Notes under the pieces: generated by a model
Databases searched by the model: none
What the model was told of the DNA's origin: nothing
Seen by the model: the letters and a program-made list of their open reading frames with translations, nothing else
Program-made: the position numbers and the translations under genes
Assembly: GCA_964528025.1 (NCBI GenBank)
Contig: CAZGOZ010000004.1
Span: 1-45,089, forward strand
Source: an uncultured Planctomycetia bacterium
GTDB taxonomy: Bacteria; Omnitrophota; Gorgyraeia; Tantalellales; Tantalellaceae
DNA length: 45,089 nt
Reading direction: 5' to 3'
Shown: one piece after another, positions 7,974 through 45,089 of the stretch
Layout of the letters: each line of letters begins with the position of its first letter
How positions within the stretch are numbered: the stretch's first letter is position 1

Positions 7974-7993
7974 ACACTCCTCACTTTCAGCAC

Positions 7994-8035
7994 TATTTAA
8001 ATAACCAAGATACAAATAATGTCAAATAATGAAAT
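7994..8035. repeat. Solo arm of the AT-rich palindrome family
   Basis: ctatttaaataaccaagatacaaataatgtcaaat matches the outer arm of the copies at 31096 and 16446. No opposing arm is present. Confidence 0.7.
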
Positions 8036-8041
8036 TCGTAC

Positions 8042-8061
8042 GGGCGAATAATCATTCGCCC
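8042..8061 (-). terminator. Short stem-loop immediately after the stop of the PrsA-like gene
   Basis: gggcgaat-aatc-attcgccc forms an 8-bp stem. The U-rich tract is interrupted, so intrinsic termination is only plausible. Confidence 0.35.
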
Positions 8062-8937
8062 TTACGTGTCGCTTTTTTTCGCTACTAACGCTTCCTCATT
8101 AATCCTGATATCGGCGTCTTCTCTCAATCCGGCGAGCAGTTTATTAAATATTCTCTGGCGTTCCACGATACGCAGCTGGGATTTTATCTCCTCTGCAACC
8201 TGTCCGACCGGCCTTTGCTGCGGTTCTTTCCTATCCGTCAATTTTATAATATGATACCCGAGTTTTGTCTTTGTCACTCCGCTTGTCTCGCCTATTTCCA
8301 GTTGCGCACAAGCGCTTTCAAATTCCGGAATCAGCTGTCCTTTTGGGAAATACCCGATATCGCCGCCTTTCTGAGCCGTAGGATCCATGGATTTCATTCT
8401 GGCCAGATCCTCAAAAACCGCGCCGGCCTTGAGTTCTTCCGAAATGCGTTCGGCACTCTCCGGCGAAGTAGCCAGAATGTGGGACACGCGCATGACCTCG
8501 GGGGTCATATATTGCGCGTGGTTATCGTTATAAAACTTTATGACGTCTTCTTCCGTGATGCTGATAACATCATCAACTTCATCTTTTAATAACCGCGCTA
8601 TCAGTATCTTTTTCCTGGCCTCCTCAACCACCTGCCTAACTTCTTTGTCCTTGTCCAATCCTCTCCGGACTGCTTCTTGATAAAGCAACGTATCGTTGAT
8701 TAATTCCTGCAGATATTCTGCCTTCTGGTTGTTAATTACACTGCGATATCTGACCGGGAGATTTGATATCCTCTCTTCAAAGTCCGCTACGGTTATCCCT
8801 TGACGGCCGATCATAGCCAAAACAACACTTTTTTCCGGCTGTCGCCCGCAACCGGTCCAGACTACCGCGCAACATAAAGCAACTCCTGCCGCAAGGAAGA
8901 CCGGTCTCATTTTTACCCGTCCTGTAAAATCTTTCAT
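8062..8937 (-). CDS. PpiC/parvulin-type peptidyl-prolyl isomerase, PrsA-like, possible lipoprotein
   Basis: N-terminal hydrophobic segment ending ...VWTGCG, and a PpiC domain (GGDIGYFPKGQL...TKLGYHIIK). Alternative ATG at 8910. Confidence 0.8.
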   Translation of the reverse strand: MKDFTGRVKMRPVFLAAGVALCCAVVWTGCGRQPEKSVVLAMIGRQGITVADFEERISNLPVRYRSVINNQKAEYLQELINDTLLYQEAVRRGLDKDKEVRQVVEEARKKILIARLLKDEVDDVISITEEDVIKFYNDNHAQYMTPEVMRVSHILATSPESAERISEELKAGAVFEDLARMKSMDPTAQKGGDIGYFPKGQLIPEFESACAQLEIGETSGVTKTKLGYHIIKLTDRKEPQQRPVGQVAEEIKSQLRIVERQRIFNKLLAGLREDADIRINEEALVAKKSDT

Positions 8938-8977
8938 TAAATCCCCACCATGAAATATGTGTTAATAAACAGATTAG

Positions 8978-9006
8978 ATGATACCAAAATTATCCGCTAC
9001 CTTCAA
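8978..9006 (-). promoter_or_regulatory. Candidate sigma70-type promoter for the PPIase-pdxA-rsmA-gatCAB run
   Basis: Minus strand reads TTGAAG, a 17-nt spacer, then TATCAT preceded by a TG extended -10. It lies ~40 nt upstream of ATG 8937. Confidence 0.4.
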
Positions 9007-9039
9007 GATTTTTCGCCAAGGTTTGCCCGTGTATAAAAT

Positions 9040-9550
9040 TCGTAGGGGCGGACCTACGTGTCCGCCCTTCGCCGCGCCCCGCGAAACGTCCGCCCATCGC
9101 CTCGCACGACCCGACTCCCCCCGTGCCTTGAACGACCCGGAGAATTGCCTGAGGGCCTTGCTCTCGGAGATGGGCAAAGAACCCGCTCGAAATTCCTTTG
9201 CAATGTATTTGGATAGGACACGTTGGGAGTGTTTCTACCGGACATAGTCCGTACGAAACACTCCCAACGCGTCTTTTGCGGTAAAAAGTAGTGTAAAAGC
9301 TGGGGTGTGGTTTTTTGTGTGTGGGCGCATAGGGCAAGGCCCTCAGGCAATTCTTCGCACCGTACTTCGTTCGCAGACAAAATTTGCTCCGCAAATTTTG
9401 CGTAGAAGCGGGGTCACCCCACCCTTCGGGGCAAGCCCTCCGCCCCCAGTCAATTCTCCGCATCGTCCGTAATTGTGACGGAGACCGCATAACCATATTT
9501 AGTGTTGGTGACACCAAAAAGCCCTCGGGATGCCAAGGGGCCCCCTTGGC
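9040..9550. repeat. ORF-free GC-rich cluster of hairpins and repeat units
   Basis: Hairpins at 9044-9068, 9221-9269 (15-bp stem) and ~9521-9552 (tgccaagggg/ccccttggca). A 21-bp inverted repeat pairs 9141-9161 with 9334-9354. Only low-quality R/G/C/P-rich ORFs cross the region. Confidence 0.75.
9064..9230. repeat. Dispersed repeat, copy A (partner at 44953-45089)
   Basis: 9098-9230 aligns by eye with 44959-45089 at roughly 85-90% identity, same orientation. Copy A has a ~28-nt extra segment after gcccttcgcc. Confidence 0.85.
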
Positions 9551-9554
9551 ATGT

Positions 9555-9690
9555 AAATAACCAATAACCAAGATACAAATAATATTCAAATTACAATAAC
9601 CAAATAGTGGGTTTTCCCTTATTTGTTTGGTTATTTGAATTTGGTTATTGATGCTTGTTTGGTTATTGTCTCTTGTATCTTGGTTATTTG
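9555..9690. repeat. Long AT-rich imperfect palindrome (subfamily aaccaataaccaagatacaa)
   Basis: Left arm aaataaccaataaccaagatacaaataatattcaaattacaataaccaaata. The right arm is its imperfect reverse complement, ending tcttgtatcttggttattt. Confidence 0.85.
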
Positions 9691-9776
9691 CCTCACATAT
9701 CCCAGGGGGCGAGGCCTCTAATAATGAGAGAAAAGGCGTTAAATAACCCGACGGGGAAGGGAAATGGGATGTGTCC

Positions 9777-11681
9777 CTATTTAATTAAATTTTTCGCTCC
9801 AAGCTTTTTTATTTCTGCCTTGAGTAAACGGCAATAAAGATCAAATCCAACCTGATCTATGAAGCCGCTTTGCTCAATGCCGAGGATATTGCCGGCGCCT
9901 CTCATTTCCAGGTCCCTCATTGCAATCCGAAACCCCGCGCCCAGATGCTGATACTTTTTTATGGAATTTAGTCTTTTCTGCACCTCATGAGTGAGCGTGG
10001 AGAAATCCCTGACCATGAAACAGGCGTAGGCCTTGCGGTCAAATCTCCCAATCCTGCCCCGCAGCTGATAAAGATCGGCCAGCCCGAACCTGTCAGCATC
10101 GTCAATGATCATTGTATTAGCATTGGGAATATCAATCCCCGATTCGATAATCGTGGTACATACCAGAATGTCTACTTCGCCTTTAATGAATTTAAGCATT
10201 GTCGCCTCAAGAGTTCGTGATTGCATCTGCCCATGCCCCACCATGACTCGAGCGCCCGGGCAAAGTTTACCGACTTCTTGAGCCACTCCGGCTATTGTCT
10301 CCACACGGTTATGAACGTAGTATGCCTGCCCTCCTCTGTCCAACTCTCTCGCGAGCACCTCTTTAATCTGCTTTTTATCGTATTCAATAATCTCAGTATG
10401 AATGGGCAGCCTTTCCAGCGGAGGCGTCTCTATAACCGATATGTCCTTGCCTCCCATGATGGCGAGATACAATGTCCTCGGAATCGGTGTTGCCGTGAGA
10501 GTAAGAATGTCTACGTTTACCCGCATTTCTTTAATCTTATCCTTGTGACGCACACCGAACCGCTGTTCTTCATCAACAATCAAAAGTCCCAGATCTTTGA
10601 AGCAAACATCATCGGAAAGTAGACGGTGCGTACCGATGATCACGTCAATCTTTCCCTCTTTCAATTCGGTCAGGATACGCTGTTGTTCTGTTTTTGTCCG
10701 AAAACGATTCAGCATGCGGATCTCCACGGGGAAATCCCTCAGTCGTTTAACAAAGGTATTAAGATGCTGCTCCGCCAGAATCGTGGTGGGAACGAGCAAC
10801 GCCACCTGTTTGCTATCCATGACGGCCTTGAAAGCGCCTCTTAAAGCGACTTCTGTCTTGCCATACCCGACATCGCCGCACAAAAGACGATCCATCGGAC
10901 GAGCTTGTTCCATGTCTCGTTTGACTTCTCTTGTCGCTTTCAGTTGATCCGGCGTTTCCTTATAGGGAAACGCCTTTTCCACCTCTTGTTGCCAGTCAGT
11001 ATCTTCCTTAAACTCAAAACCAGCGGCCCTCTCTCTCTTTGCCTGAAGCATCAAAAGATCCTTTGCCAAGAGAGCAGCACCCTTTAAAGCGTTCTTTTTT
11101 GTTGTTTCCCATTTTTTACCCTTAAGGGAGTGTAATTGTGTCCCACTTCGATGAAAGGAGATATATCTCTGCAGTTTATGGAGGTCACTGTCCTCTACAT
11201 AGAGCTTATCACCGCCTTTGTACTCCAGAACGAAATAATCGCTTAACTTGCCGTTGTGACGCATCCGCTGCATTCCGAGATATTTTCCTATCCCGTAATC
11301 GACATGCACCGCAAGATCCCCCGGTTCAATGTCCACAAACGAATCTATTGGCTGCTCGCCGGTTCCAATGGAAATACTCTTTTTTACGCGCTTGCGTCTC
11401 AACACCCCGACAGGGAGAATGATGACGCCATTATGCTCGTCAATGCTTCTAAAAGACAACGCATCTACACTCTTTATTGAAACCACTATACCGCGGGAAA
11501 GATCCAGACGCACCGGATACTCAAAAGTGGCGGGAAAAATTATCAGGATATCTCCCGTCAGGCTATAATCCCCGCAATGAGAAACACTGCGGCATCTCGA
11601 ATATCCGTATTTATCCAAATGGCGCAAAACGTCACCCAATTCCACCGTTTCGCCGATATAAAATTTAAGTGAATCAAACAT
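9777..11681 (-). CDS. mfd: Short Mfd-like transcription-repair coupling factor (partial D1b + RNAP-interacting CarD/TRCF domain + SF2 translocase); no D1a/D2, D3 or C-terminal D7
   Basis: GDLAVHVDYGIGKY (RID), GDVGYGKTEVA (Walker A), DEEQRFG, QLRGRIGR, and RGAGNILGIEQSG (TRG-type motif). Start set at ATG 11681 because the TTG at 11738 lies in the palindrome. The ORF stops ~15 aa after GFDLYCRLL. Confidence 0.85.
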   Translation of the reverse strand: MFDSLKFYIGETVELGDVLRHLDKYGYSRCRSVSHCGDYSLTGDILIIFPATFEYPVRLDLSRGIVVSIKSVDALSFRSIDEHNGVIILPVGVLRRKRVKKSISIGTGEQPIDSFVDIEPGDLAVHVDYGIGKYLGMQRMRHNGKLSDYFVLEYKGGDKLYVEDSDLHKLQRYISFHRSGTQLHSLKGKKWETTKKNALKGAALLAKDLLMLQAKRERAAGFEFKEDTDWQQEVEKAFPYKETPDQLKATREVKRDMEQARPMDRLLCGDVGYGKTEVALRGAFKAVMDSKQVALLVPTTILAEQHLNTFVKRLRDFPVEIRMLNRFRTKTEQQRILTELKEGKIDVIIGTHRLLSDDVCFKDLGLLIVDEEQRFGVRHKDKIKEMRVNVDILTLTATPIPRTLYLAIMGGKDISVIETPPLERLPIHTEIIEYDKKQIKEVLARELDRGGQAYYVHNRVETIAGVAQEVGKLCPGARVMVGHGQMQSRTLEATMLKFIKGEVDILVCTTIIESGIDIPNANTMIIDDADRFGLADLYQLRGRIGRFDRKAYACFMVRDFSTLTHEVQKRLNSIKKYQHLGAGFRIAMRDLEMRGAGNILGIEQSGFIDQVGFDLYCRLLKAEIKKLGAKNLIK

Positions 11682-11720: not shown

Positions 11721-11899
11721 AAAATAACCAATAACCAAGTTACAAGATACAAATAATATTCAAATCACAATAATCAAACAACACAGCAGTTTATCAAAGT
11801 TATTGATAATTGATTTTTTGGTATCTTCTCTCGTGTTTGGTTATTGAAATTTGGTCATTGGTTATTGTTTGTATCTTGTTTCTTGTATCTTGGTTATTG
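11721..11899. repeat. Long AT-rich imperfect palindrome
   Basis: Arms aaaataaccaataaccaagttacaagatacaaataat... and ...ttgtttgtatcttgtttcttgtatcttggttatt, between the argS stop and the mfd start. Confidence 0.85.
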
Positions 11900-11923
11900 C
11901 GTATAGCCGTTATCCCGCACCAC

Positions 11924-13971: not shown

Positions 13972-14066
13972 TGATTGAGTTTATGTTATCCCAGAATGCG
14001 CCTCGGGGGAAATATTGACTCTGTGTCTGTTTCCGACCTAAGATGCCACGAGAAAACGAGATACGA

Positions 14067-14210
14067 TTATTTTCCGAGTATCCGATACATGCCCGTTCCA
14101 CAGGATGGACATTTGCCTTTCATTGCTTTTCTTCCGTTCTTCATTGTGACTTCTTTGGCATCTTTCATCTCTTTTTTCGCTTTACATTTTACACAATAAC
14201 CTTCTGCCAT
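14067..14210 (-). CDS. Small zinc-ribbon protein, 47 aa (DUF5679-like)
   Basis: Below the ORF-track size cut-off. An AAGGAGG RBS precedes the ATG at 14210. Translation: MAEGYCVKCKAKKEMKDAKEVTMKNGRKAMKGKCPSCGTGMYRILGK, with CxxC...CxxC. Confidence 0.7.
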   Translation of the reverse strand: MAEGYCVKCKAKKEMKDAKEVTMKNGRKAMKGKCPSCGTGMYRILGK

Positions 14211-14253: not shown

Positions 14254-14281
14254 AGTTTAGCATACGAATACTAAAAGTCAA
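14254..14281 (-). promoter_or_regulatory. Candidate sigma70-type promoter for the zinc-ribbon gene
   Basis: Minus strand reads TTGACT, a 16-nt spacer, then TAAACT, ~45 nt upstream of ATG 14210. Confidence 0.35.
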
Positions 14282-14367
14282 GAAATTACCGTACATGCTC
14301 CTGTTGCCGAATGAATTTAAATCACCTATAGCCAAAATAGTGAACAGTAATCAGTGCGTAGTAAACA

Positions 14368-14542
14368 GTAAAATTCAAATAACAAAGCACAAAATTCAAA
14401 ATAAATCCAAAAGCTCAAATTCAAATAATAAAACCTTAGATTTTTGCCTGGTATTTTGTTTTTTGAATTTTGTTATTTGTGCTTATTTTGTGCTTTGAAT
14501 TTTGTCATTTGACATTATTTGTATCTTGTATCTTGATTATTC
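14368..14542. repeat. Long AT-rich imperfect palindrome, composite of both subfamilies
   Basis: The left arm, aaattcaaataacaaagcacaaaattcaaaataaatccaaaa, is ~90% identical to 29144-29205. The right arm ends in gtcatttgacattatttgtatcttgtatcttg, the reverse complement of the 31096 left arm. Confidence 0.85.
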
Positions 14543-14580
14543 CCACAGTGACTATGGAATAATCCGGACAAATATCAGTG

Positions 14581-16430: not shown

Positions 16431-16445
16431 CTCATAACCTCTCTA

Positions 16446-16585
16446 TTTAAATAACCAATAACCAAGAAACAAGATACAAATAAATCTCAATAACCAATAA
16501 CCAAACAATGGTTTTTCCTGTTTGGTTATTTGAATTTGGTTATTGATTATTGTTTGGTTATTGTTTCTTGTATCTTGGTTATTTC
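16446..16585. repeat. Long AT-rich imperfect palindrome between proB and proA
   Basis: aaataaccaataaccaagaaacaagatacaaataa... paired with ...ttgtttggttattgtttcttgtatcttggttattt. Confidence 0.85.
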
Positions 16586-16596
16586 CTTCCTGTCTC

Positions 16597-19393: not shown

Positions 19394-20524
19394 CTATCGG
19401 TTCCAGCTGACGATCTCGACTTCTGTTCCACTGTCACCCGTACCCGTACCGGTAGGAATCGTTCTGACATAATTGTAATCAATATTGGCAAACACGTTGT
19501 CAATGTTTATCTTGCGGCCGGCAAGCAGAATACCGTTAATATCCACGATAGCCCCCCACTGCACGGCAACAAAATCCTGTTGCGCGTAAATAAGGGCTTC
19601 TTCCGTGTCTATGCGGCCAAAAACGCTTATGTTTCCCCCGCGAGCCACTACCATGTTGTAATCCCCATATTTTTTCTGGATCAAAGTTCCGTTTATACGG
19701 ATCTTCTCTGCCACAATACCCCCGCTCACCGTGCATACACCCTTGAAAGTCGCAATGCCTTCCACATAAACAATGCCGTTAGCCGGCGAAAGCGTCGTAT
19801 CAGTAAACGTTTTATTGCCGGAATAATAATCTCCGGAATCGATGGCCGCCGCCTTATGTAATTCATAATCAAATACGGGGAAATCTATCCGTGGAGCGCC
19901 TTCTTCCACGGTAGCACTGTCATTACTCTGGCCGTTAATATAGACATTCTCATCAAATTTATCCTGGAGATAATGAATGGTGCCTTCCTTCACTTCTCCC
20001 GTCGCCGACACTTCTCCCGTTATATCCATTCGCCCGAGAACAGGCCCTCCTGAAAGATAAACCATGTCATTCGCATGAATATCGCCATTTAAGCTTATGG
20101 TCGCGAAAGGGAAACAACGCAGCCGGATGGTATTTCCGACCCCAATCAAATAATCCAGGGCCGATGCCGCATTCTTCCGGATCTCAACCACCACGGTTCT
20201 TGAAACCCCTCCGGACGTACCTACTGACGTAACGAGATACCGGGTTCCAACCTGTGAAAACGTGACGACATAACTTCCCGTGTCCATAGTTGTCGCAAAA
20301 TCCGTCTGGGAGTCAAAACCACCCGCTTCAAGCTTTGCACGGGCATGATTTATGCCGGATTCGGCTATATTCTTCGCCTGTTCATTCAGCGTGGCGCGTT
20401 TCACCAATTCTATATCGCCTCTTAGGACGGAAGTAAATGCAAGTACAGTCGCTGACATCAGCAGCACAAAAACCATGACCAATATCAGAATGCTGCCTTT
20501 ATTTTGTATTTTAGACTTTATCAT
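19394..20524 (-). CDS. PilX_N-like minor pseudopilin, module A (no Glu5; repeat-rich C-terminal region)
   Basis: Start moved to ATG 20524 (MIKSKIQNKGSILILVMVFVLLMSATVLA) because the longer ORF begins inside a GC hairpin. Paralog of 23337-24473; both end in VSWNR. Confidence 0.7.
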   Translation of the reverse strand: MIKSKIQNKGSILILVMVFVLLMSATVLAFTSVLRGDIELVKRATLNEQAKNIAESGINHARAKLEAGGFDSQTDFATTMDTGSYVVTFSQVGTRYLVTSVGTSGGVSRTVVVEIRKNAASALDYLIGVGNTIRLRCFPFATISLNGDIHANDMVYLSGGPVLGRMDITGEVSATGEVKEGTIHYLQDKFDENVYINGQSNDSATVEEGAPRIDFPVFDYELHKAAAIDSGDYYSGNKTFTDTTLSPANGIVYVEGIATFKGVCTVSGGIVAEKIRINGTLIQKKYGDYNMVVARGGNISVFGRIDTEEALIYAQQDFVAVQWGAIVDINGILLAGRKINIDNVFANIDYNYVRTIPTGTGTGDSGTEVEIVSWNR

Positions 20525-20537
20525 TTGGATTCCTACT

Positions 20538-20590
20538 GGGCGGGTATAAAACCCGCCCCTACTCATTTCGGGCAGGTTTAGAACCTGCCC
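20538..20590. repeat. Two tandem GC-rich hairpins (GTAGGGGC...GCCCCTAC family)
   Basis: gggcgggt-ataaa-acccgccc followed by ggcaggtt-tag-aacctgcc, each followed by ctac. They sit between the stop of the giant pseudopilin and the start of the PilX-like gene. Confidence 0.85.
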
Positions 20591-22882
20591 CTACTTACTC
20601 GTGTTCCTCGGTTCTATTTCCAGTCTATTTTCTTCTTGTAAGATTCTGCCGAAAAAATCCACGGACGCTTTCATGTCCACGATAAGCGTCTTAATCAGTT
20701 CTCTTCCGTCAACCGTCACGGTTACCTGACCGTAATCATTTCTTTTAGCGATATCGCCACTGATCGTGCACACGCGATCTTTGCCCGGCCAGTCAACTTC
20801 AATGTCGTCAACCCATACCGAAGTCACTCCCGACACGAGAAACTCGCCGCTATATAAGGGGAACTCATAAGACGCTAAAGATACCTGTTCATTTACATAG
20901 TCCTCATAACTTTTCTTGCCTCCTCCGCCCGATATCTCCCAATACGGCACGGTTGAAAGTTCCGCCATGGACTGAACATAGCGTCCGGCAACGGCCGGAG
21001 GCGATCCGGAAGAAAGTGTTTCCCACTCTGCCGCACCGCTCATATTTTCGTCGTCTGAAGCCCGGGCTTTCACGGATGCCGCAGTGCCGACCGGACTGTA
21101 TTCCGACCATCTAATCGTGTTATACGCCGGATTATCCAGGGCCGTATTAAAAATCTGAGATTCAACGGTTCCGACCTTCCGCCAGCTATCAATTTCCGCA
21201 ACGGCAAAAATCTCGTCAGTAGAACCTTCCGGCGTGTAAACGCCCTGCCATGCGGGCGTCCCGACGGCCTTCTCTAAATCTGCCAGGTCGTATCCCGCGC
21301 CTGTAAGATAATAAGTATTAACCGAACTCCCGGGCCAGTATTTACAGGCTCCTCCCGCGGGGACGGTGACAAGATATGTTACAAGATAATCAACCGCGTT
21401 TCCGACGGAATCCGCTGTGATAAGCGGAAAGGCCGTCCACTCGCTCCACGCCTCCCCTCCCTGTGGCAAGCTTGGCAGTATTGTTATTCCGGAAACTATA
21501 TCATCAGTGACTCCATCGCCGTCAAAATCCTCGATGGTATCCCTGAAAAACAATTGCTGATGCATATGGTACTCTTTTGCATCTTCTCCGGGTATCGGAT
21601 TATCGTTTTCAAGACCGTCATAATTTTCCGCCCCGACAGCATTGTTTTTCCTTGTAATATAGGCCTTCTCTATGCGGAGACTGCTGCCGGCAGAAGAAGA
21701 TGTCATAAATCTAATCCGGATGAGATCCTTTTCTCGATTCAGGACCAGATACTGACTTTTTATCAGCGTCCTGATAACCATGGGATCATCGGCTTCGCCT
21801 GCCGGATTGGACGGATTAGCATATCCGTCAATTTCATTCGCGCCGGTCTGCTGCTGCGCATGCCATGCCACCTCTTCGGGATCGGTAGCATAGCCCGGCA
21901 GATCAAAGGCATTAGGAAGGTCAAGCGCGACTCTTTCCTCCTCTCCTGTAAGAGAAACGTTATCTCTAGATGCCACTTCAAAAGAAGAGTTCCGCCACAA
22001 ATCATAACCGTCCGTAATCTCTATCCAATCCCCGCTTCCCATGGCGGCATATTCAAGGTAATTGCCGTTTCCCCATTTGTCGCCATATACTCTCGAAGCC
22101 GTGAAGCCATTAGAGTTGAACATCCCCGGCAAAGCAAACGTGGAAATATAGTATTCGGCTTCCCGCACGCTTCCGGAAGGCGTAATCTTAAGATTATCTA
22201 TCCCGAAGGCATATCCGGATGAAGATGTATTTTTCCCCGCTACCGTAAAACGTATATCATGAGAACCGAGGCCGAGCTGAACATGACCAAAGGTAACATT
22301 TTTTTTGCATACGGCATCGGCGGATTCATCATAAAAATCAGTTATAGGAGAAGACGACGAAATTTCAAAACTTTCAAGATCGGTTCTTATAAGGTCCTTA
22401 TAGGAATCACCTGCTAACGTGCCGGATGCCACGTTCGCCAATTGGCCGTATCTCTCCTGCCGCCCCCATCCGCTGTTCCATGAATTAATAACCGTCCGCC
22501 GGAGTTTTTTTCCGACCCCTGCTTCTACTATTACATGATATATAACGGTTTTGTCCCAGGCAATTTTATTTTCGCCGTCAAGCGAATAAAGGCCGTCATC
22601 GTCAGCCTCAGCCAAAGGCATGCTTATGGCCGTAAAAACCGCGCCACCGGTGGGATAAAACAGCATATAAGTGCCGCTTGACAGACGAATATCCCTTCTT
22701 ATCGTTTCAAGGCCCTTCATCATATCTACACGCAGGGCGCTGCGGTACCTTTCGGCTGTCCACACTTTATGGAAAAATGTCCAAATCGAAAGGGTGGTTC
22801 CCAGAACAAACAGCGCAACACTCACCGCAATCAACAATTCCATGATTGTGACGCCTTTTCGTCCGAATATGCCGCCGTTCAT
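20591..22882 (-). CDS. Giant pseudopilin, module A (prepilin-type N-terminus, 763 aa)
   Basis: MNGGIFGRKG/VTIMELLIAVS (Gly-1, Glu+5). AAGGAG RBS before ATG 22882. Aligns along its whole length with 24481-26784. Confidence 0.75.
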   Translation of the reverse strand: MNGGIFGRKGVTIMELLIAVSVALFVLGTTLSIWTFFHKVWTAERYRSALRVDMMKGLETIRRDIRLSSGTYMLFYPTGGAVFTAISMPLAEADDDGLYSLDGENKIAWDKTVIYHVIVEAGVGKKLRRTVINSWNSGWGRQERYGQLANVASGTLAGDSYKDLIRTDLESFEISSSSPITDFYDESADAVCKKNVTFGHVQLGLGSHDIRFTVAGKNTSSSGYAFGIDNLKITPSGSVREAEYYISTFALPGMFNSNGFTASRVYGDKWGNGNYLEYAAMGSGDWIEITDGYDLWRNSSFEVASRDNVSLTGEEERVALDLPNAFDLPGYATDPEEVAWHAQQQTGANEIDGYANPSNPAGEADDPMVIRTLIKSQYLVLNREKDLIRIRFMTSSSAGSSLRIEKAYITRKNNAVGAENYDGLENDNPIPGEDAKEYHMHQQLFFRDTIEDFDGDGVTDDIVSGITILPSLPQGGEAWSEWTAFPLITADSVGNAVDYLVTYLVTVPAGGACKYWPGSSVNTYYLTGAGYDLADLEKAVGTPAWQGVYTPEGSTDEIFAVAEIDSWRKVGTVESQIFNTALDNPAYNTIRWSEYSPVGTAASVKARASDDENMSGAAEWETLSSGSPPAVAGRYVQSMAELSTVPYWEISGGGGKKSYEDYVNEQVSLASYEFPLYSGEFLVSGVTSVWVDDIEVDWPGKDRVCTISGDIAKRNDYGQVTVTVDGRELIKTLIVDMKASVDFFGRILQEENRLEIEPRNTSK

Positions 22883-22906
22883 ATTATCTCCTTGCGTATC
22901 ACTCAC

Positions 22907-23335
22907 TTACTCACTGGTATTAAAAAACACCGCTTCCATTGTTACTGGATGTCCCGATTCAACACCGTCCTCAAGTCTGTCTACGCTGACTTTTATCCTC
23001 AAAAGGTCGACATAGCCGGAATAGTCCTCAAAAACTTCGGTGGTCCGGTAATAGTCCGTTATCCCATCTCCGTTTGTATCAACGGACGTCTTCGTCTCCG
23101 GGGCTATAACGGGCAAATCACTGAAGGGAAATTTTCCGAGAACGTCTATCTGACGTTGGGCCAGAATAGAAGCCGTGTATACCTTATCGGCCTGTCCCGT
23201 AAATGTCACGCACCGGACTACCGCTACGATCAGAGCCACGAGAACCATAGCCATTATCCCGCTTGCCAACACCACTTCCACGAGGGTGAAGGCCGATTTA
23301 TATCCTGAACGTTTTTGGGGGGAATAGATTTTCAT
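22907..23335 (-). CDS. Small pseudopilin, module A (142 aa)
   Basis: ...GYKSA/FTLVEVVLASGIMAMVLV prepilin-type segment. ATG at 23335, next to the stop of the upstream gene. Contains a DTNGDGITD loop. Confidence 0.7.
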   Translation of the reverse strand: MKIYSPQKRSGYKSAFTLVEVVLASGIMAMVLVALIVAVVRCVTFTGQADKVYTASILAQRQIDVLGKFPFSDLPVIAPETKTSVDTNGDGITDYYRTTEVFEDYSGYVDLLRIKVSVDRLEDGVESGHPVTMEAVFFNTSE

Positions 23336-23336
23336 C

Positions 23337-24473
23337 TTATCGGTTCCAGCTGACCACCCTGACCCCGCTTGTCTCATCGGTCATGAAAAGCGGATAAATA
23401 TACGTATAAGTGTATGCGAGATCCGTCTTAACGTTAAACATGTCTATGTTTCTTTTTGCCAGCATTATACCTTTAACTCTGACAACGGGGGTTACCCACC
23501 AGACTGTTGCATGTGTTTTGATGTCCTGTGAAGCATAGACGCAGGCTTCCCGCACGTAAAGTTCTCCTCCGATATCTATATCTCCGTCTTTGGCGATTAC
23601 AACATTTCTGTCACCGCGTCTGAACTGATTAAGCGTGCCGTTAACATAAATATTATCGGCAATTATTCCGCCATTAATCGTGCAGGACCCTTCTATGGTT
23701 ACATCTCCGTCAACATAAACTATTCCGTTTTTCGGCGTCATGGTCTTGGAAGAAAATATCTGGGATGACTCGTAATAATCATCCGAATCATCGGCCGCGT
23801 CTTTATAGCTCGTATAATCAAACTCCGGGAAAGAGGCCCTTTTTGTGTCCTCATATACTCTTGCGCCGTCTCTGGCAACACCGTTAATCTCGACGTTTCG
23901 GTCCATTGTATCGGGACGATCGTGCCTTGTTCCTTCCCGGACAATATTCGAAGCGGAAACGTCTCCATCAATGGATAATTTGCTAAATATCTGCGCTACC
24001 AGAATAACATCGTTATTGGCGTGAATGTCTCCGGTTATGGAAAGCTCTTCCACCCCGGCATAGGCCTGTATCTTGATATTATTTCCGGCACACGCGATAT
24101 AATCCAAAGACGTTGGGGTTAAATCCTCTAATTCCGCCGATACCGTCGAAGAAGCCCCGGAAACGGTCCCTGTCGAAACCACAAGATGCTTGCCGGAGCT
24201 TTCAAGAAATTCCACGCTGTAAGAACCATTATCAAGACGGTCCGTGAAATTCGTACGTGAAACAAACCCGTTCTCCTGCAGTTTAGCAAGGGCATGATTT
24301 ATCCCCGCCTCGGCCATGTAACGCGCCTGTTCTCTCTCCGTGACAGCCTGGATAAACTTCACATCTGTCTGGACCATAGTAGATAGAGAAACCGTGCTGA
24401 AAGCCATTATTGCCACGAAAAGCATCACAACTATCAGAACTATTCCCTGTTCTTGTGTGGATCTTTTTTTCAT
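23337..24473 (-). CDS. PilX_N-like minor pseudopilin, module B
   Basis: MKKRSTQEQGIVLIVVMLFVAIMAFSTVSL...AEAGINHALAKL. 378 aa. Paralog of 19394-20524. Confidence 0.7.
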   Translation of the reverse strand: MKKRSTQEQGIVLIVVMLFVAIMAFSTVSLSTMVQTDVKFIQAVTEREQARYMAEAGINHALAKLQENGFVSRTNFTDRLDNGSYSVEFLESSGKHLVVSTGTVSGASSTVSAELEDLTPTSLDYIACAGNNIKIQAYAGVEELSITGDIHANNDVILVAQIFSKLSIDGDVSASNIVREGTRHDRPDTMDRNVEINGVARDGARVYEDTKRASFPEFDYTSYKDAADDSDDYYESSQIFSSKTMTPKNGIVYVDGDVTIEGSCTINGGIIADNIYVNGTLNQFRRGDRNVVIAKDGDIDIGGELYVREACVYASQDIKTHATVWWVTPVVRVKGIMLAKRNIDMFNVKTDLAYTYTYIYPLFMTDETSGVRVVSWNR

Positions 24474-24480
24474 CCAGCTC

Positions 24481-26784
24481 CTATTTTCCGGTATTTTTCG
24501 GCTCTACTTCCATGGTATTACCTATTTCCAGGGTTTTACCCCTGATCTCGGTTGATACTTTTGCCGTGACTGAAAGGATCTTCGTCACTTCTTCTCCGTC
24601 AATCAGCACCTTTGCCCGGCCATAATCGTTTTTCCTCGCCACATATCCCGAAACGACACAACTTGTCCGTCGCGCGCCCGGCCAGCTTATCTGGACATCG
24701 TCCAGCCACGGATATTCGACAGTCGCAGCAAGTAATTCTCCTGAAGCGTCACGCGGGAAAATATACGGATCACCCTTTCGTTGTCTTTGCACATAATCGC
24801 TATAATTAAGCTGCTCGCCGGACGATTCCCACAAAAGACCGGCCGTTAATTCCGCCAAAAATTGCACATACCTTTGGCTGCTTATGGATAAAGCATGGGG
24901 ATTGGACGTTCGCCCGCTTATGTCTTCCCAATCACTTGCTCCGTCCATAGCACTATTTGCCGAAGACCGCGCTTTAAGTCGTATCTGCGTTCCCCCGGGA
25001 CGGTTCTCTGACCATTTCATGCTGGCGTAAGCGGGGCTTGTTTTGGCGGTATCAAAGATTTGTGATTCCACCGTTCCGGTTTTTTTCCAGGTATCAATCT
25101 CCTCAACAATAAAAATACGGTCATTACCCCAGTAATCCCTGTTTTTCCTTTCAATTCCCAGATTCTGTGACCATGAAGGCGTTCCGGCAATCTCAATTCC
25201 ATGCGCATCACTGTTTATGTCGTTGTCTTTCACATAAAATGAGAGGTCTGTCTTCCCCCTCCAATATCTGCAGTCCGGCTTGCCACCATTGAATGTCTGA
25301 AACTCCGCCGGAAAATCAACATCCTCAAGTTCCGGAATATAAATCGCTATCATATAATCAACGTCTCTGTCGGCAGAGTTTTTTTGGACAAACGGAAAAG
25401 CGGTCCATTCACTCCAGACTTCCGAATTAGCAGGAATATATACCTCTTCCAGCAGATCTTCAGCTCCGCTGGGATTTCTCATATCATACGCATCTCTAAA
25501 AAACAACTGCTGATGCCAATGATACTCTGGAATCTCATTCTTGCCGGGTTTTTGATTCGGAAGGCCATCCACCTCTTCCCCGCTTTCTCTCCTCATTATA
25601 TAGGCAGCGGATATTTTTAGGGGGTTCTCCGAGGATGATCGAAACTTTACTCTGATAAGATCGGCATCGTCAATTATGAATCCGTTCTCTACAATCGTTC
25701 GAATAACGACAGGACATGTCGGCAGGTTTCCGTCTCTTCCTCCCAGAGTTGCGTCACCGGTTTCTGCAGCGGACGACCAGGCTATCTCCACGGCCTCTAC
25801 GCCTTCCTGAGGGACATCCAGCTCCACGTGCACTTCTTCTCCGGCTTTCGTAGTATTATCCAGAGTAGCCGACGCAAAGGAAGATTCTCTCCATAAATCG
25901 TAATAGTCTTTAAATTCCACATAAGCCCCTGCGCCGCCGGCCTGGAATTCCAGATAATTATTGTTCTCCCAGACGGAATCATACACGCGTTTGGCCGTTC
26001 CGCCTGTTACCGTAAGAGCCCCATCCGGCGCGAAAGAAGAATTATAATATTCGGCTTCTCTCCAACTCCCGCAGGGAGTGATGCTAATATTATCTATCCC
26101 TATTCCGTATCCTGAAGATGCGGGATTTTTCCCGTCTATTTCAAAGCGTATCGTGTGCTCTCCTGCGGACAATCTCGCTTCGCCAAACGTTATTCTGTCA
26201 ACTTTCACGGGAGTATCGGATTCATCGTAAAAATCAACCAAAAGCGCCAGGGGATCTACAATGAAAGTTTCCAGATTCCGCAGAAAATTCTTATCCGTCG
26301 TTGAGTCGCGGCCCCCATCCCCACTGTCAACGGTATTTTTCAATTGTTTATACCTCGCGGCATCGGTCAAGTCATTGTCCCGCGGGTCATAAACCGTCCG
26401 CCTCAGGGTAGCCGTTCCGTCCTCTTCGCTAAATATGTGATAAACAACCGTTTTGTCCCATTCTATCGCTTCGTCGGCGTCAAGTTTCAAAAAACCCCCG
26501 TCATCGGTGTCCGCCACAGGCAGGCTTATCGCGGAATAAGATGTTTCTTCGGCGGGATAAAACGACATGTACCTGAGACTGGATCTGCGTATATCTCTCT
26601 TGATAATCTCCAGCGCTTTCATGAGATCCACCCTCAAATGTGTCTCGTCGCTTTTTTCAACCCAGGTCTTATAGATAAAAACCCACGCGGACGTTACACT
26701 CCCGATAATAACTACCGAGACCATAATAACGAACATTATCTCTGTCAACGTAAACCCGCGCTGATTTAACCTTTTTCGCCACAT
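24481..26784 (-). CDS. Giant pseudopilin, module B (767 aa)
   Basis: MWRKRLNQRG/FTLTEIMFVIMVSVV prepilin-type N-terminus. GAGGAAGAGG RBS. Confidence 0.75.
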   Translation of the reverse strand: MWRKRLNQRGFTLTEIMFVIMVSVVIIGSVTSAWVFIYKTWVEKSDETHLRVDLMKALEIIKRDIRRSSLRYMSFYPAEETSYSAISLPVADTDDGGFLKLDADEAIEWDKTVVYHIFSEEDGTATLRRTVYDPRDNDLTDAARYKQLKNTVDSGDGGRDSTTDKNFLRNLETFIVDPLALLVDFYDESDTPVKVDRITFGEARLSAGEHTIRFEIDGKNPASSGYGIGIDNISITPCGSWREAEYYNSSFAPDGALTVTGGTAKRVYDSVWENNNYLEFQAGGAGAYVEFKDYYDLWRESSFASATLDNTTKAGEEVHVELDVPQEGVEAVEIAWSSAAETGDATLGGRDGNLPTCPVVIRTIVENGFIIDDADLIRVKFRSSSENPLKISAAYIMRRESGEEVDGLPNQKPGKNEIPEYHWHQQLFFRDAYDMRNPSGAEDLLEEVYIPANSEVWSEWTAFPFVQKNSADRDVDYMIAIYIPELEDVDFPAEFQTFNGGKPDCRYWRGKTDLSFYVKDNDINSDAHGIEIAGTPSWSQNLGIERKNRDYWGNDRIFIVEEIDTWKKTGTVESQIFDTAKTSPAYASMKWSENRPGGTQIRLKARSSANSAMDGASDWEDISGRTSNPHALSISSQRYVQFLAELTAGLLWESSGEQLNYSDYVQRQRKGDPYIFPRDASGELLAATVEYPWLDDVQISWPGARRTSCVVSGYVARKNDYGRAKVLIDGEEVTKILSVTAKVSTEIRGKTLEIGNTMEVEPKNTGK

Positions 26785-26809
26785 ACTGCCTCTTCCTCTT
26801 TATGCCGTT

Positions 26810-27256
26810 TCATGCAACATCTGATATCAGCGTTTCCATTACGATCTTCTCTTCGCCGAAAACCGGAGCGCCGCGTCCCACCCGGGTCACCGTCCCTCCA
26901 AGGGTAATCCCCACTTTTTTAACAGTTACTTTAACTTTTGCCAGATGTGAATTATTATCATAATTCGCTGTGACCTCCATGGTCCGCGAAAAATCGTCCA
27001 GTCCGTCTCCGTCAACATCTACGCGAAAATCATCCTCGGCGCCCGCCGACAAGAGCTGATCAAAATCAAACCTTCTCAGCTGATCTATCCCCGACTGAGC
27101 CAAACAAGAGGCTGTATATGCCATGTCTATCCGTTTTGAGAACACAGAACTCTGGGACATGACAGCTATCAACGCCCCCATCACAACTCCGACAATGGCG
27201 ACAGAAATAACAACCTCTATCAGCGTCAATCCTCTGTTATTTTTCGTTTTTGCCAT
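26810..27256 (-). CDS. Small pseudopilin, module B (148 aa)
   Basis: MAKTKNNRG/LTLIEVVISVAIVGVV, with a DVDGDGLDD loop. Starts 11 nt after the rng stop. Confidence 0.72.
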   Translation of the reverse strand: MAKTKNNRGLTLIEVVISVAIVGVVMGALIAVMSQSSVFSKRIDMAYTASCLAQSGIDQLRRFDFDQLLSAGAEDDFRVDVDGDGLDDFSRTMEVTANYDNNSHLAKVKVTVKKVGITLGGTVTRVGRGAPVFGEEKIVMETLISDVA

Positions 27257-29132: not shown

Positions 29133-29143
29133 ACACCTAATCT

Positions 29144-29271
29144 GAATTTCAAATAACAAAGCACAAAATTCAAAATAAATCCAAAACTTCAAATCCAAAT
29201 AACAAAATTTTTGTTCCTTTGAAATTTGTCATTTGGGATTATTTTGTGCTTTGAATTTTGTCCTTTGGATT
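29144..29271. repeat. Long AT-rich imperfect palindrome (subfamily caaaattcaaagcacaaaat)
   Basis: The left arm is ~90% identical to 14371-14430. The right arm (29239-29271) overlaps the last codons and stop of pilQ. Confidence 0.85.
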
Positions 29272-31065
29272 TCCCCCTCCTTCACCGCTTTTCTCCTCTT
29301 TCTTCCCTTCGCCTGCGGGCTCTTTCTCTTTTCTGAAATCCATTATCGGTTTATAGCCCTCTTTCTTATCCTTGAAAGGATTCTTGTCATCCCACGGGAC
29401 TTTCTGCGCTTCAAAATTCTCCCACCTCCGGATGATCTCATCGCTGTCATTCTGCGATTTTCCTATATATTTATCATACTCCGCCATCATCTGGCCGGCC
29501 TTGACGGAATCCATCGCGTCTTTCACGAGATGCACCGTAATGAAAAACACTATTTCCGTTCTTGTTGCGGCCTCAGCCTCATACCTGAACAAATGTCCCA
29601 TAAACGGTACATGTTGGAATATATCCCCCAGAACCGGAACTTTATTATCTTTTCGCTCTACTTTTCGTTTTATCAGCCCTCCTATAAAGATCGTCTCACC
29701 GTCTCTCGCCCGTATAGTCGTGCTGGCCTCTCTTGAGTTAAAGGTAAGCGCAACCGTGGATAACGTCCCGCCTGCAACCGCCTGTGTAGAAAATCCAGCA
29801 TTCGTGGACACTTCCGGAAAAAGGTTAACGGATATATCGCCGTTCTCATTTACATGCGGGATCACTGTCAGTTTCACTCCGGCTTCCCTAGCCTCCGCTT
29901 CCTCCTCAAACTCAACAGTGACTATACCGGCCGTCTGTGTCGTCTCCTGAGTCTTCTGCAGCATCACTTTCTCCACCACCTTTATCATGGCTTTCTGATT
30001 ATTAAGCGTAGTGATCCGCGGACTTGAAAGCGTCTCCGTATTCAACCTCTCGTCTATAAAACTCATTGTCGCCGTGAAGGTGCTGAAGTCAAGCGAACCG
30101 TATGTAAACGGAGCGGCATAGTTCAGTGTAGTAGTTGAGGTTATCGTTGGAGCAGGGGTAAGATACGGGAAGTCAGAACTCTGTTCAATGGCCGTTTCCG
30201 CGATATTGGACATGTACGGAAAGAACTTTCTCTGGCCGCCGGGAAGAAACCCAAAAACTCCGCTGCGTTCAAATGGAAAAGTCGTGGGCCGTTTGGCCAT
30301 TGACGCGGAAATAATCGCGTTCCAGTCCACACCGAACCGTTCGTCATCATCCAGCTCAATCTCTATAATTTTGGTATCCAGCAAAATCTGCGGTGTTTTC
30401 TTGTCTATTCTCGCGACCATATTTTTCACTTCAATAATTCGGGCGGGAATGGCTGTTACGACTATCGCATTCGCGCTTTGCACAAAAGTGGCCTTTTCTC
30501 CTTTTCCGATGTCAATAATTGAGTTAACGGCCGCCATTAGCTGGATGATGCTTTCTTCCTTCTCCGCCACAGTTATCCCTTCCCCGGATGAAGTACCTTT
30601 TGTCAATTCCACTTCGCGCATGATATGGTTTATCGGAATAACTTCCGTTACCGGCTCTTCACCCTGGAGCTGGGTCTTGGGCATGACCCGAATAATATCC
30701 TGCTTATCATCCCGAAGATATACATATCCGCTATTTCTGGTAACAATATCCAGCGCGGTCTCCCATGGTTTGTTCCTGAGCCGCATGGTGACCATTCCTT
30801 CCACTCCGGGAGAAGGGACGATATCCACCCCGCTGACCTCTGACAGATAATGCAAAACCGTCATGATGTCCACATCCTTGAAATTCACCGTTACGTTACC
30901 GGAAGCCGGAAGAGGTTGTTCGGATTCCTTTTCCACTTCCACTACGGGCGTTCCGGCCGGCGTCGCCATCTGTCCATACAATGGCACCGGGTTCATTCCC
31001 GCAAAAACTATCACGATAAATACAACAAACCCTTTCATTACACTTCCATATTTTCTTATTTTCAT
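29239..31065 (-). CDS. pilQ: Type IV pilus secretin PilQ with a ~94-aa K/E-rich C-terminal extension
   Basis: N0-like domain (VNFKDVDIMTVLHYLSEVSGVDIV) and a secretin core ending VPVLGDIFQHVPFMGHLFRY...EIVFFITVHLV. AAGGAG RBS before ATG 31065. Confidence 0.85.
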   Translation of the reverse strand: MKIRKYGSVMKGFVVFIVIVFAGMNPVPLYGQMATPAGTPVVEVEKESEQPLPASGNVTVNFKDVDIMTVLHYLSEVSGVDIVPSPGVEGMVTMRLRNKPWETALDIVTRNSGYVYLRDDKQDIIRVMPKTQLQGEEPVTEVIPINHIMREVELTKGTSSGEGITVAEKEESIIQLMAAVNSIIDIGKGEKATFVQSANAIVVTAIPARIIEVKNMVARIDKKTPQILLDTKIIEIELDDDERFGVDWNAIISASMAKRPTTFPFERSGVFGFLPGGQRKFFPYMSNIAETAIEQSSDFPYLTPAPTITSTTTLNYAAPFTYGSLDFSTFTATMSFIDERLNTETLSSPRITTLNNQKAMIKVVEKVMLQKTQETTQTAGIVTVEFEEEAEAREAGVKLTVIPHVNENGDISVNLFPEVSTNAGFSTQAVAGGTLSTVALTFNSREASTTIRARDGETIFIGGLIKRKVERKDNKVPVLGDIFQHVPFMGHLFRYEAEAATRTEIVFFITVHLVKDAMDSVKAGQMMAEYDKYIGKSQNDSDEIIRRWENFEAQKVPWDDKNPFKDKKEGYKPIMDFRKEKEPAGEGKKEEKSGEGGGNPKDKIQSTK

Positions 31066-31095
31066 CGGTAAACTCCTTTGTAACACGTGTTGCGC

Positions 31096-31257
31096 TATTT
31101 AAATAACCAATAACCAAGATATGGATAATGTCAAATGACAAAATTCAAAGCACAAAATAAGCACAAATACCAAAATCCAAAACACAAATAAAAGCTTTGT
31201 TATTTGAATTTGAGATTTTGGATTTATTTTGGATTTTGTGCTTTGTCATTTGGATTT
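31096..31257. repeat. Long AT-rich imperfect palindrome, composite, between pilP and pilQ
   Basis: ctatttaaataaccaataaccaagatatggataatgtcaaatgacaaaattcaaagcacaaaataagcacaaata..., with a complementary right arm ending gtgctttgtcatttggattt. Confidence 0.85.
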
Positions 31258-31283
31258 AACGCCTGTCCTCAGTGTTGCAGTTC

Positions 31284-44952: not shown

Positions 44953-45089
44953 GCCCTTCGCCTCCCACGACCCAACTCCCCCCGTGTCTTGAACGACCCG
45001 GAGAATCGCCTGAGGGCCTTGCTCGCGAGGCTGGGGGAAAACCGCCCGAAATTTTTTTGCAATGTATTTGTATAGGACACGTTGGGAGT
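44953..45089. repeat. Dispersed repeat, copy B (runs off the window edge)
   Basis: Roughly 85-90% identical by eye to 9098-9230, same orientation. It ends with ggacacgttgggagt, which in copy A is the left arm of a 15-bp hairpin. Confidence 0.85.

Follow-up and report, generated by a model that had tools for sequence, protein, structure and literature searches.

A stretch of 45,089 nt from the chromosome of a member of Candidatus Omnitrophota (hereafter the window, itself part of a 112,888-bp metagenome contig) carries a family of long AT-rich palindromes in the spacers between its genes. From the build of their arms, the gene enclosed by their longer relatives and their turnover among related genomes, we conclude that these palindromes are probably miniature members, lacking an open reading frame (ORF), of a selfish palindromic cassette family that has spread through Candidatus Omnitrophota and whose longer form encloses a gene of the PF05635 family. 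PF05635, also known as S23p, was first seen as the ORF of intervening sequences (IVS) in 23S rRNA.

Palindrome arms and the PF05635 gene

Six imperfect palindromes of 130-180 nt (E1 to E6) and one solo arm, which a preliminary description had recognised from the letters of the window, were found at the places given there, and every copy lies between genes, as that description had stated (Table 1). The palindromes form long imperfect hairpins with arms of 49-87 nt, pairing over 71-89%, and folding gave each window element one long hairpin with a free energy (dG) of -28 to -59 kcal/mol, more stable than shuffled sequence (z -3.0 to -9.3) and about equally so on both strands. The two sets of words from which the arms had been said to be built also proved to mark real subfamilies: type A, comprising E1, E2 and E4, contains the words AATAACC, AAGATAC and similar, and type B, comprising E3, E5 and E6, contains AAATGAC, AAAATTC and AAAGCAC, with E3 and E6 being chimeras that carry type A words at one end. 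Diagnostic words occur far above expectation in shuffled sequence (AATAACCAAGWWACAA, 8 occurrences against 0.00 expected; CAAAGCACAAAAT, 7 against 0.10), in agreement with the earlier claim that the copies form one repeat family beyond low-complexity DNA. The loops of the window copies span 3-71 nt and hold no ORF.

Closer examination of the arms identified units of 7 nt, the first arm using CAA-NNNN and the second NNNN-TTG, with a corresponding periodicity in which 5'-arm C and 3'-arm G are enriched 2.1-2.8x, 1.7-2.1x and 1.2-1.4x at lags of 7, 14 and 21, respectively. The elements are also polar, in that word order differs between the arms and a forward profile scores about 2x its reverse. 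Unpaired arms are few relative to pairs (15 versus 74), and most of them are split by inserts or lie at contig ends. At L030:2915-2960 a pure tandem TATCTTG run extends a type A right arm, and metagenome contigs contain a 7-nt deletion variant at window position 11851; arm length seems to change through slippage of entire units. Also identified inside type A left arms were GC-rich palindromes, placed at the same spot right after AAGATAC (L084:2255-2330, L033:13803-13835 and L048:308-340), which suggests a preferred target within the arm.

A profile search of 455 kb of loci returned 89 matches, among them 73 full-length copies, 70 of which are unique. Pairing of arms over the same 455 kb revealed a few that lie 370-420 nt apart, and at two loci, L054 and L030, the space between them holds a sense-oriented ORF of 114-115 amino acids (aa). 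Both ORFs correspond to PF05635, '23S rRNA-intervening sequence protein' (E = 3.5e-18 and 9.3e-17, respectively). The protein has more than 2000 close homologues, mostly on contigs of 0.5-3 kb, and the named ones are all 'four helix bundle protein [Candidatus Omnitrophota]'; its nearest solved structure by sequence is the uncharacterised 2rld. Five further PF05635 subfamilies were examined, located between pilB and pilC, hisF and hisI, hisG and a TPR-protein gene, pilC and pilMN, and radA and yacL, with co-oriented housekeeping genes as neighbours at all five sites. Each of these genes is preceded by a type A left arm, with 3-12 nt between arm and ATG, and followed by a type A right arm that begins at most 15 nt past the stop. 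Altogether, type A arms flank a PF05635 gene of 114-118 aa in 7/7 cassettes examined, and RNAfold pairs the two cassette arms around the ORF. One cassette, identical in protein and arms, was found both between pilB and pilC and between hisF and hisI, with the edges TAAATAACC...GGTTATTT and no duplication; one of the two contigs is probably a chimera joined through the repeat.

Given that type A arms surround the PF05635 ORF in each subfamily and that an identical cassette occurs at two loci, the arms and the ORF travel as one unit. The ORF is present in about 2/48 type A copies, in a sample that was drawn by a left-arm 26-mer and is independent of loop content. Because type A arms are the arms of the PF05635 cassette, the type A copies of the window correspond to the cassette without its ORF, and we consider it very likely that type A copies are ORF-less members of the PF05635 cassette family. 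For type B, a like architecture, the same niche and the chimeras with type A words provide an indirect link to the cassette, and it is reasonably likely that these elements belong to the same system.

Reach, placement and turnover

The preliminary description had named confinement to the window as counting against a repeat family of this kind; copies occur instead in other genomes and metagenomes as well. Three more were found in 15 kb of the same contig outside the window. A strict palindromic type B pattern (26 specified bases) matched 16 loci, of which 15 are in 7 species-representative Omnitrophota metagenome-assembled genomes (MAGs; locus GC 40-51%) and the last in a MAG labelled Patescibacteria, and the type A 26-mer matched 43 loci in several JGI metagenomes. 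Neither element pattern was present in 2.9 million viral contigs, which leaves phage vectors unsupported, and a limited search of the literature found no earlier account of such palindromes in Omnitrophota. Outer arms are as similar between genomes (90% identity) as within them (91%), while identity over the whole element is 86% within genomes and 80% between, the inner parts being more genome-specific. In a run with the organism at ~35x, assembler contigs stop at every copy, with word depth from 9 to ~170x that of single-copy sequence, and one metagenome assembly breaks within E1. Metagenome contigs placed along the window gave joints that link copy to copy, and no clean empty-site alleles were seen among them. 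A look through RNA sequencing runs found none that contains the organism. The family explains the assembly breaks found every few kilobases in Omnitrophota, and its arm profiles can serve as a lineage marker and, during the assembly of metagenomes, help to mask or bridge the repeats.

At loci outside the window, where gene calls are simple, crude ORF calls, as well as within it, placement is strongly skewed: 53 of the 73 full-length copies lie between tandem genes, 4 between convergent and 0 between divergent genes, and 16 either at the end of a contig or with no called gene nearby. Sites fall between a stop codon and the next ribosome-binding site (median gaps of 13 nt on the side of the upstream stop and 22 nt on that of the downstream start), and the orientation is sense at 46 of the 53 tandem-gene sites and opposite at 7 (p = 4e-8). 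In the window, E4 splits proBA and E6 splits the pil operon, and E1 and E3 stand upstream of the conserved extended -10 promoters of the next units. E1 itself lies between the mfd stop and a canonical terminator with GC stem and T-run. Since that terminator is directly 3' of it, E1 is within the mfd 3' untranslated region and is not the sole terminator there, so the option of a terminator, raised in the preliminary description, is unsupported for E1. A scan for intrinsic terminators found no GC-rich stem with T-run within the elements and one just after E1. In a promoter scan, promoter-like sites were no commoner than in shuffled sequence, with none in the arms and a sole within-element match in the centre of E2; promoter hexamers are discernible by eye in the gene-proximal arm. 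The elements thus reside in spacers and 3' untranslated regions that are transcribed, without being canonical terminators in their own right.

The comparison with orthologous spacers that had been proposed at the outset was carried out, and relatives lack equally long AT-rich spacers at the same positions. In relatives at ~70% ProA identity the gene order is kept, with proB and proA overlapping or 20 nt apart. In a sister species (MAG GCA_043811335.1, protein identity 94-96% to the window genome), E1 is absent from its site; the outer type A arms of E2 are kept around a centre of ~340 nt that consists of nested inverted heptamer arrays and a third palindrome type; the E3 site spans 18 nt versus ~300 nt in the window, with homology resuming at the conserved promoter; the E4 site holds a GTAG-tagged GC hairpin; and the solo arm is kept beside the surA ribosome-binding site with different sequence upstream. 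Between tsaD and mgtC, the sister species has a full type A copy and the window genome a 62-nt spacer. Even within one population, the rluD-aroA spacer, whose flanks in two assemblies are 99.7% identical over 2.3 kb, contains a type B copy in one of them and two GTAG...CTAC GC hairpins in the other. These comparisons show that the gain, loss and rebuilding of cassettes and miniatures outpace species divergence. At the polymorphic sites the pattern resembles replacement of the whole spacer more than a clean insertion.

Other repeats were also noted. Short GC hairpins with GTAG...CTAC tags, of the repetitive extragenic palindrome (REP) kind, were observed at 9042-9057 of the window, at L005:2430-2507 (an inverted pair, REPIN-like) and at L025:40-70, and in relatives and in another strain such hairpins are found in precisely those spacers where the window genome has AT palindromes; GC and AT hairpins seem to be rivals for a single niche. 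The third palindrome type, found in the sister species (L073:500-670 and L073:3990-4155; words AAATCCGAAATA... and GGATTTAGAGATTCGGATTT) and absent from the window, is nested in type A arms or adjoins a type A right arm. Heptamer arrays of the form TNACTGN (TCACTGA, TTACTGT) were observed at window 14337-14371, L012:835-880, L023:2620-2660 and 2815-2860, and L073:440-480 and 730-770, often as inverted pairs that bracket a palindrome, namely type B copies in L012 and L023 and the nested insert in L073; they are one base off the TAACTGA intergenic repeats of Beggiatoaceae, cyanobacteria and Bacteroidetes. A second, GC-rich repeat family of ~220 nt occupies 9138-9357, with a further copy at 44953-45089 that continues in L004:9604-9934 and more copies in L032 and L064. 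It has terminal inverted repeats of 19-22 bp (GA(A/G)AATTGCCTGAGGGCCTTGC at 9143-9161 and 9334-9352), a central hairpin at 9221-9269, a word depth of 25-75x single copy and no Rfam match, and it looks like a conventional MITE, a miniature transposable element with inverted repeats.

The window has a GC content of ~47%, its proteins assign it to Candidatus Omnitrophota, and every gene is on the minus strand. Its housekeeping genes are gatCAB, ksgA, pdxA, surA, mfd, argS, rsfS, nadD, proAB and obg, and further genes encode ribosomal proteins L27 and L21, RNase G and the type IV pilus (pilMNOPQ/BCT). A scan of the window found zero tRNA or tmRNA genes, and Rfam searches (whole window at gathering scores; 8900-9800 at E-values up to 1) gave chance microRNA-like matches only. 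An archaeal TATA-box or Borg-like origin, prompted by TTTAAATA and the coding on one strand, was rejected, as the genes are bacterial and of Omnitrophota. The co-orientation of all called genes is unusually strict for a segment of a bacterial chromosome, and the plus strand has a negative GC skew in each 1-kb bin over the 45 kb (1-45089). A three-gene module, encoding a pilin-like protein of ~150 aa, a protein of ~770 aa and a PilX_N-like protein of ~380 aa, is present in two tandem sets at 19394-27256 (set 1: 22907-23377, 20591-22906 and 19394-20566; set 2: 26810-27256, 24481-26784 and 23337-24473), the proteins of which are clearly related in sequence. Between the conserved promoter and rsfS, a DUF5679 gene of 47 aa (14043-14186) is kept in all relatives examined.

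Table 1. Palindromic elements of the window and associated features; element limits were refined from profile matches.
Feature	Position	Strand	Remarks
Solo right-hand arm	7993..8037	-	Sense strand reads ...TTTGACATTATTTGTATCTTGGTTATTTAAATAG; directly 5' of Shine-Dalgarno and ATG of surA-like gene; 3' of GC hairpin 8042-8061
Conserved promoter of ppiC-like gene	8978..9006	-	TTGAAG-17-TATCAT (TG); downstream of E1 and of the GC-rich repeat
Canonical intrinsic-terminator-like hairpin	9522..9539	-	CCCTTGGCATCCCGAGGG then CTTTTTGG; immediately 3' of E1
E1, type A	9549..9696	-	Arms 9555-9605 and 9639-9689; 3' region of mfd
E2, type A	11722..11904	-	Between argS and mfd; arms 11724-11778 and 11850-11904; centre 71 nt
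Conserved extended -10 promoter	14254..14281	-	TTGACT-16-TAAACT with upstream TG; downstream of E3
TNACTGN heptamer array	14337..14371	-	TTACTGT TTACTAC GCACTGA TTACTGT TCACTAT; abuts E3
E3, chimera	14368..14543	-	Type B core 14368-14518; type A words (CAAGATACAAGATACAAATAAT) 14519-14543; between nadD and conserved promoter
E4, type A	16443..16590	-	Fills proB-proA spacer; starts 6 nt past proB stop, ends 12 nt before proA ATG
E5, type B	29140..29276	-	Downstream of pilQ-like secretin gene
E6, chimera	31095..31267	+	Between pilQ and the gene upstream of pilQ; type B core 31122-31267, orientation opposite to genes; type A right-arm words 31095-31121 adjoin pilQ

Mechanism and alternative explanations

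A full cassette consists of a left arm of CAA-containing 7-nt units, a PF05635 gene of 114-118 codons and a right arm of complementary TTG units, and in the window copies the same arms enclose a short loop. We infer that the elements are transcribed within the host operon and that the arms pair in vivo into an A-U-rich stem of 50-70 bp. By analogy with the 23S IVS and the Correia elements of Neisseria, RNase III may then cut the stem and split the polycistronic RNA into upstream and downstream cistrons, and in full copies the same cut would free the S23p message; we regard such processing as plausible, if somewhat short of probable. The sense bias would be explained by the dependence of the ORF on host transcription, with miniatures inheriting their orientation from full copies. 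This suggests that many Omnitrophota operons may be cut into pieces after transcription. A broader version, in which S23p and IVS make up a general intervening-sequence class for any long transcript, present by the hundreds in Omnitrophota operon spacers, excised by RNase III and punctuating operons, with an S23p pentamer that reads the arm words and drives their spread, appears to us rather unlikely; if it were true, the reading of 7-nt words by the pentamer would account for words frozen across the phylum.

A number of observations weigh against the cassette explanation. An RNAalifold consensus contains 17 pairs, none with a double (compensatory) change, an absence attributable to paired columns that are nearly invariant. 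Strand asymmetry of folding energy was likewise not found (type A p = 0.15, type B p = 0.44), and with neither strand folding better, selection on structure at the RNA level is unproven. Among the copies examined no type B copy with an ORF was seen, and ORF-end remnants in the loops of ORF-less copies were not significant against shuffled sequence (E2 and L004b are suggestive by eye), which leaves the direction of derivation, through deletion of the ORF or its capture by a hairpin, unsettled. No target-site duplication was found at the flanks of 70 copies or at both sites of the identical cassette, nor were a transposase and a clean-edged pair of empty and filled sites found among the loci compared; given the replacement-like sites and the lack of duplication, the elements may have spread by recombination instead of transposition. 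Finally, genes and GC skew share a single direction throughout the window, so that the orientation bias relative to transcription cannot be told apart from one relative to replication.

The elements might instead be host regulatory hairpins, such as terminators, attenuators or mRNA-stabilising stems, needed by particular gene pairs and kept by selection without being mobile. Their fixed site between stop codon and next ribosome-binding site and their strong orientation bias would fit such a role, as would the GC-rich hairpins that take the same sites in relatives as if interchangeable, the equal conservation of outer arms between and within genomes, and the fact that E1 and E3 close transcription units and precede conserved promoters. 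However, the sister species and more distant relatives, in which proB overlaps proA, lack the elements at these sites, and the elements split operons that are contiguous elsewhere. An ordinary terminator follows E1, the stems have neither GC clamp nor T-run, and identical ORF-bearing cassettes lie at unrelated loci. We therefore consider regulatory hairpins improbable as the origin of the family, although individual elements could later have been co-opted by the host. In a related proposal, the arms offer arrayed binding sites to a protein that recognises 7-nt units on DNA or single-stranded RNA, for which a protein of the cold-shock or S1 type, a nucleoid protein and the S23p pentamer are candidates, and palindromy is secondary. 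The clear 7-nt periodicity and the invariance of whole words across species of 40-51% GC, with no compensatory pair changes, point in this direction, and for intergenic heptamer arrays just 5' of starts in Beggiatoaceae and cyanobacteria a role as S1, Csp or CsrA sites has been put forward (PMC4679880). Yet the words always come as inverted pairs, with solo arms rare, and any reader protein is putative only. As a full account, binding arrays have little probability in our view; the idea is compatible with the cassette explanation and does not replace it.

The preliminary description had offered a MITE- or REP-like family or, alternatively, an intergenic RNA structure. Of this proposal the MITE-like character stands, type A now being recognisable as the PF05635 cassette without its ORF; target-site duplications were not found, and the arms are devoid of REP traits. 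Among the RNA-level options offered there, an RNase processing site is now the favoured candidate, by analogy with the 23S rRNA IVS. Classical MITEs mobilised by the transposase of an insertion sequence (IS), or REPINs moved by the RAYT tyrosine transposase, would be expected to give small, palindromic, multi-copy, intergenic elements that vary between strains, as observed here, and GTAG-tagged GC hairpins of the REP kind do coexist in these genomes. The 70 copies and the identical-cassette sites lack a flanking TA as well as the duplication, so the family is not one of classical cut-and-paste MITEs; neither a GTAG nor a CGTC tag is present in the AT-rich arms; the sole ORF found inside is PF05635, which is not known as a transposase; and no transposase gene was seen beside the copies, the genomes not having been searched in full. 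We thus judge this origin very improbable. Hardly credible at all is the view that each palindrome arose independently by slippage and fold-back on a local heptamer microsatellite of the STRR kind. Heptamer number does vary between copies, and the tandem run in L030 and the indel at 11851 described above would be expected from it, but copies from different species share the same long words, word order and arm asymmetry, and the shared order largely refutes independent slippage. Arm length is probably modulated by slippage.

Comparison with known systems

The S23p family and the 23S rRNA IVS have been known for some thirty years, and to our knowledge they have no accepted function and no known way of moving. 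An element of the IVS kind outside rRNA, present in many copies, some with the gene and some without, and recently gained or lost among close relatives, provides material for working out both the mobility of IVS and the function of S23p. S23p-type IVS are found in the 23S rRNA genes of Coxiella, Leptospira, Brucella and Xanthomonas (PMC4990558). The Coxiella IVS is described as a selfish element of 428 nt in 23S rRNA helix 45, with the S23p ORF in its loop behind a poor ribosome-binding site, terminal inverted repeats pairing into a stem that RNase III cuts, and three or two tandem GACAGAT heptamers, depending on the strain, directly 5' of the S23p ATG (PMC4990558). The Omnitrophota elements resemble it in having terminal inverted repeats in a long stem, far stabler than shuffled sequence, and, in full-length copies outside the window, a PF05635 ORF in the loop that lacks a good ribosome-binding site and whose ATG is abutted by heptamer arms; they too would be selfish. 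As the loops of the window copies hold no ORF, we file these copies as miniature relatives of the S23p IVS and not as full members. Unlike the IVS, the Omnitrophota copies lie between protein-coding genes and outside rRNA helix 25/45 (the sequences examined held no rRNA gene), occur many times per genome, mostly without ORF, and have AT-rich stems of 50-70 bp versus 28 bp in Coxiella; excision by RNase III has been demonstrated for the IVS and is proposed here for the Omnitrophota elements. The S23p family is also regarded as homologous to Avd, the accessory protein of diversity-generating retroelements (PMC10053308).

Among smaller repeats, the elements share with MITEs of the ERIC, Correia and RUP type that they are small, non-coding and multi-copy and form a long stem-loop; no TA-type target-site duplication accompanies them at the copies and sites given above, and the only longer form found at the loci examined, whole genomes not having been searched, carries PF05635, which is not known as a transposase. 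REP and REPIN sequences with their RAYT (PMC3116915, PMC3733652) are likewise extragenic palindromes in the same niche. REPs, however, are 20-40 bp long, GC-rich and tagged with GTAG or CGTC, whereas the Omnitrophota arms are 50-80 nt, AT-rich and untagged, and the AT palindromes are not REPs. The intergenic heptamer repeats of cyanobacteria (STRR) and Beggiatoaceae (TAACTGA; PMC4679880) also consist of 7-nt units, often ending just before a start codon. These are direct arrays of one heptamer, in contrast to the several heptamers in fixed order and inverted pairs seen here. The attC sites of integrons, such as the Vibrio cholerae repeats, are imperfect palindromes of 60-140 bp with fixed polarity, 3' of co-oriented genes; the genes flanking the Omnitrophota elements are instead syntenic housekeeping genes, and RYYYAAC/GTTRRRY core sites were not seen by eye.

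Closer in form are two families of intergenic hairpins. ERIC, or IRU, of enterobacteria comprises imperfect palindromes of ~127-180 bp in transcribed spacers, for which orientation matters and which are conserved across species, as in Omnitrophota (PMC2229807). ERIC elements are co-transcribed with flanking genes and have a documented effect via RNase E (PMC2229807); they differ in their 7-bp terminal repeats with TA duplication and in having neither heptamer construction nor a PF05635 full-length form. Correia/NEMIS elements of Neisseria are also intergenic hairpin repeats (Correia 100-155 bp), the transcripts of which are proposed RNase III substrates affecting neighbouring mRNAs (PMC2229807); the Omnitrophota elements showed no counterpart to the 24-bp terminal inverted repeats, the TA target duplication or the IHF site of Correia. 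Taken as miniature intergenic palindromes, the Omnitrophota elements would, by analogy, work most like ERIC and Correia.

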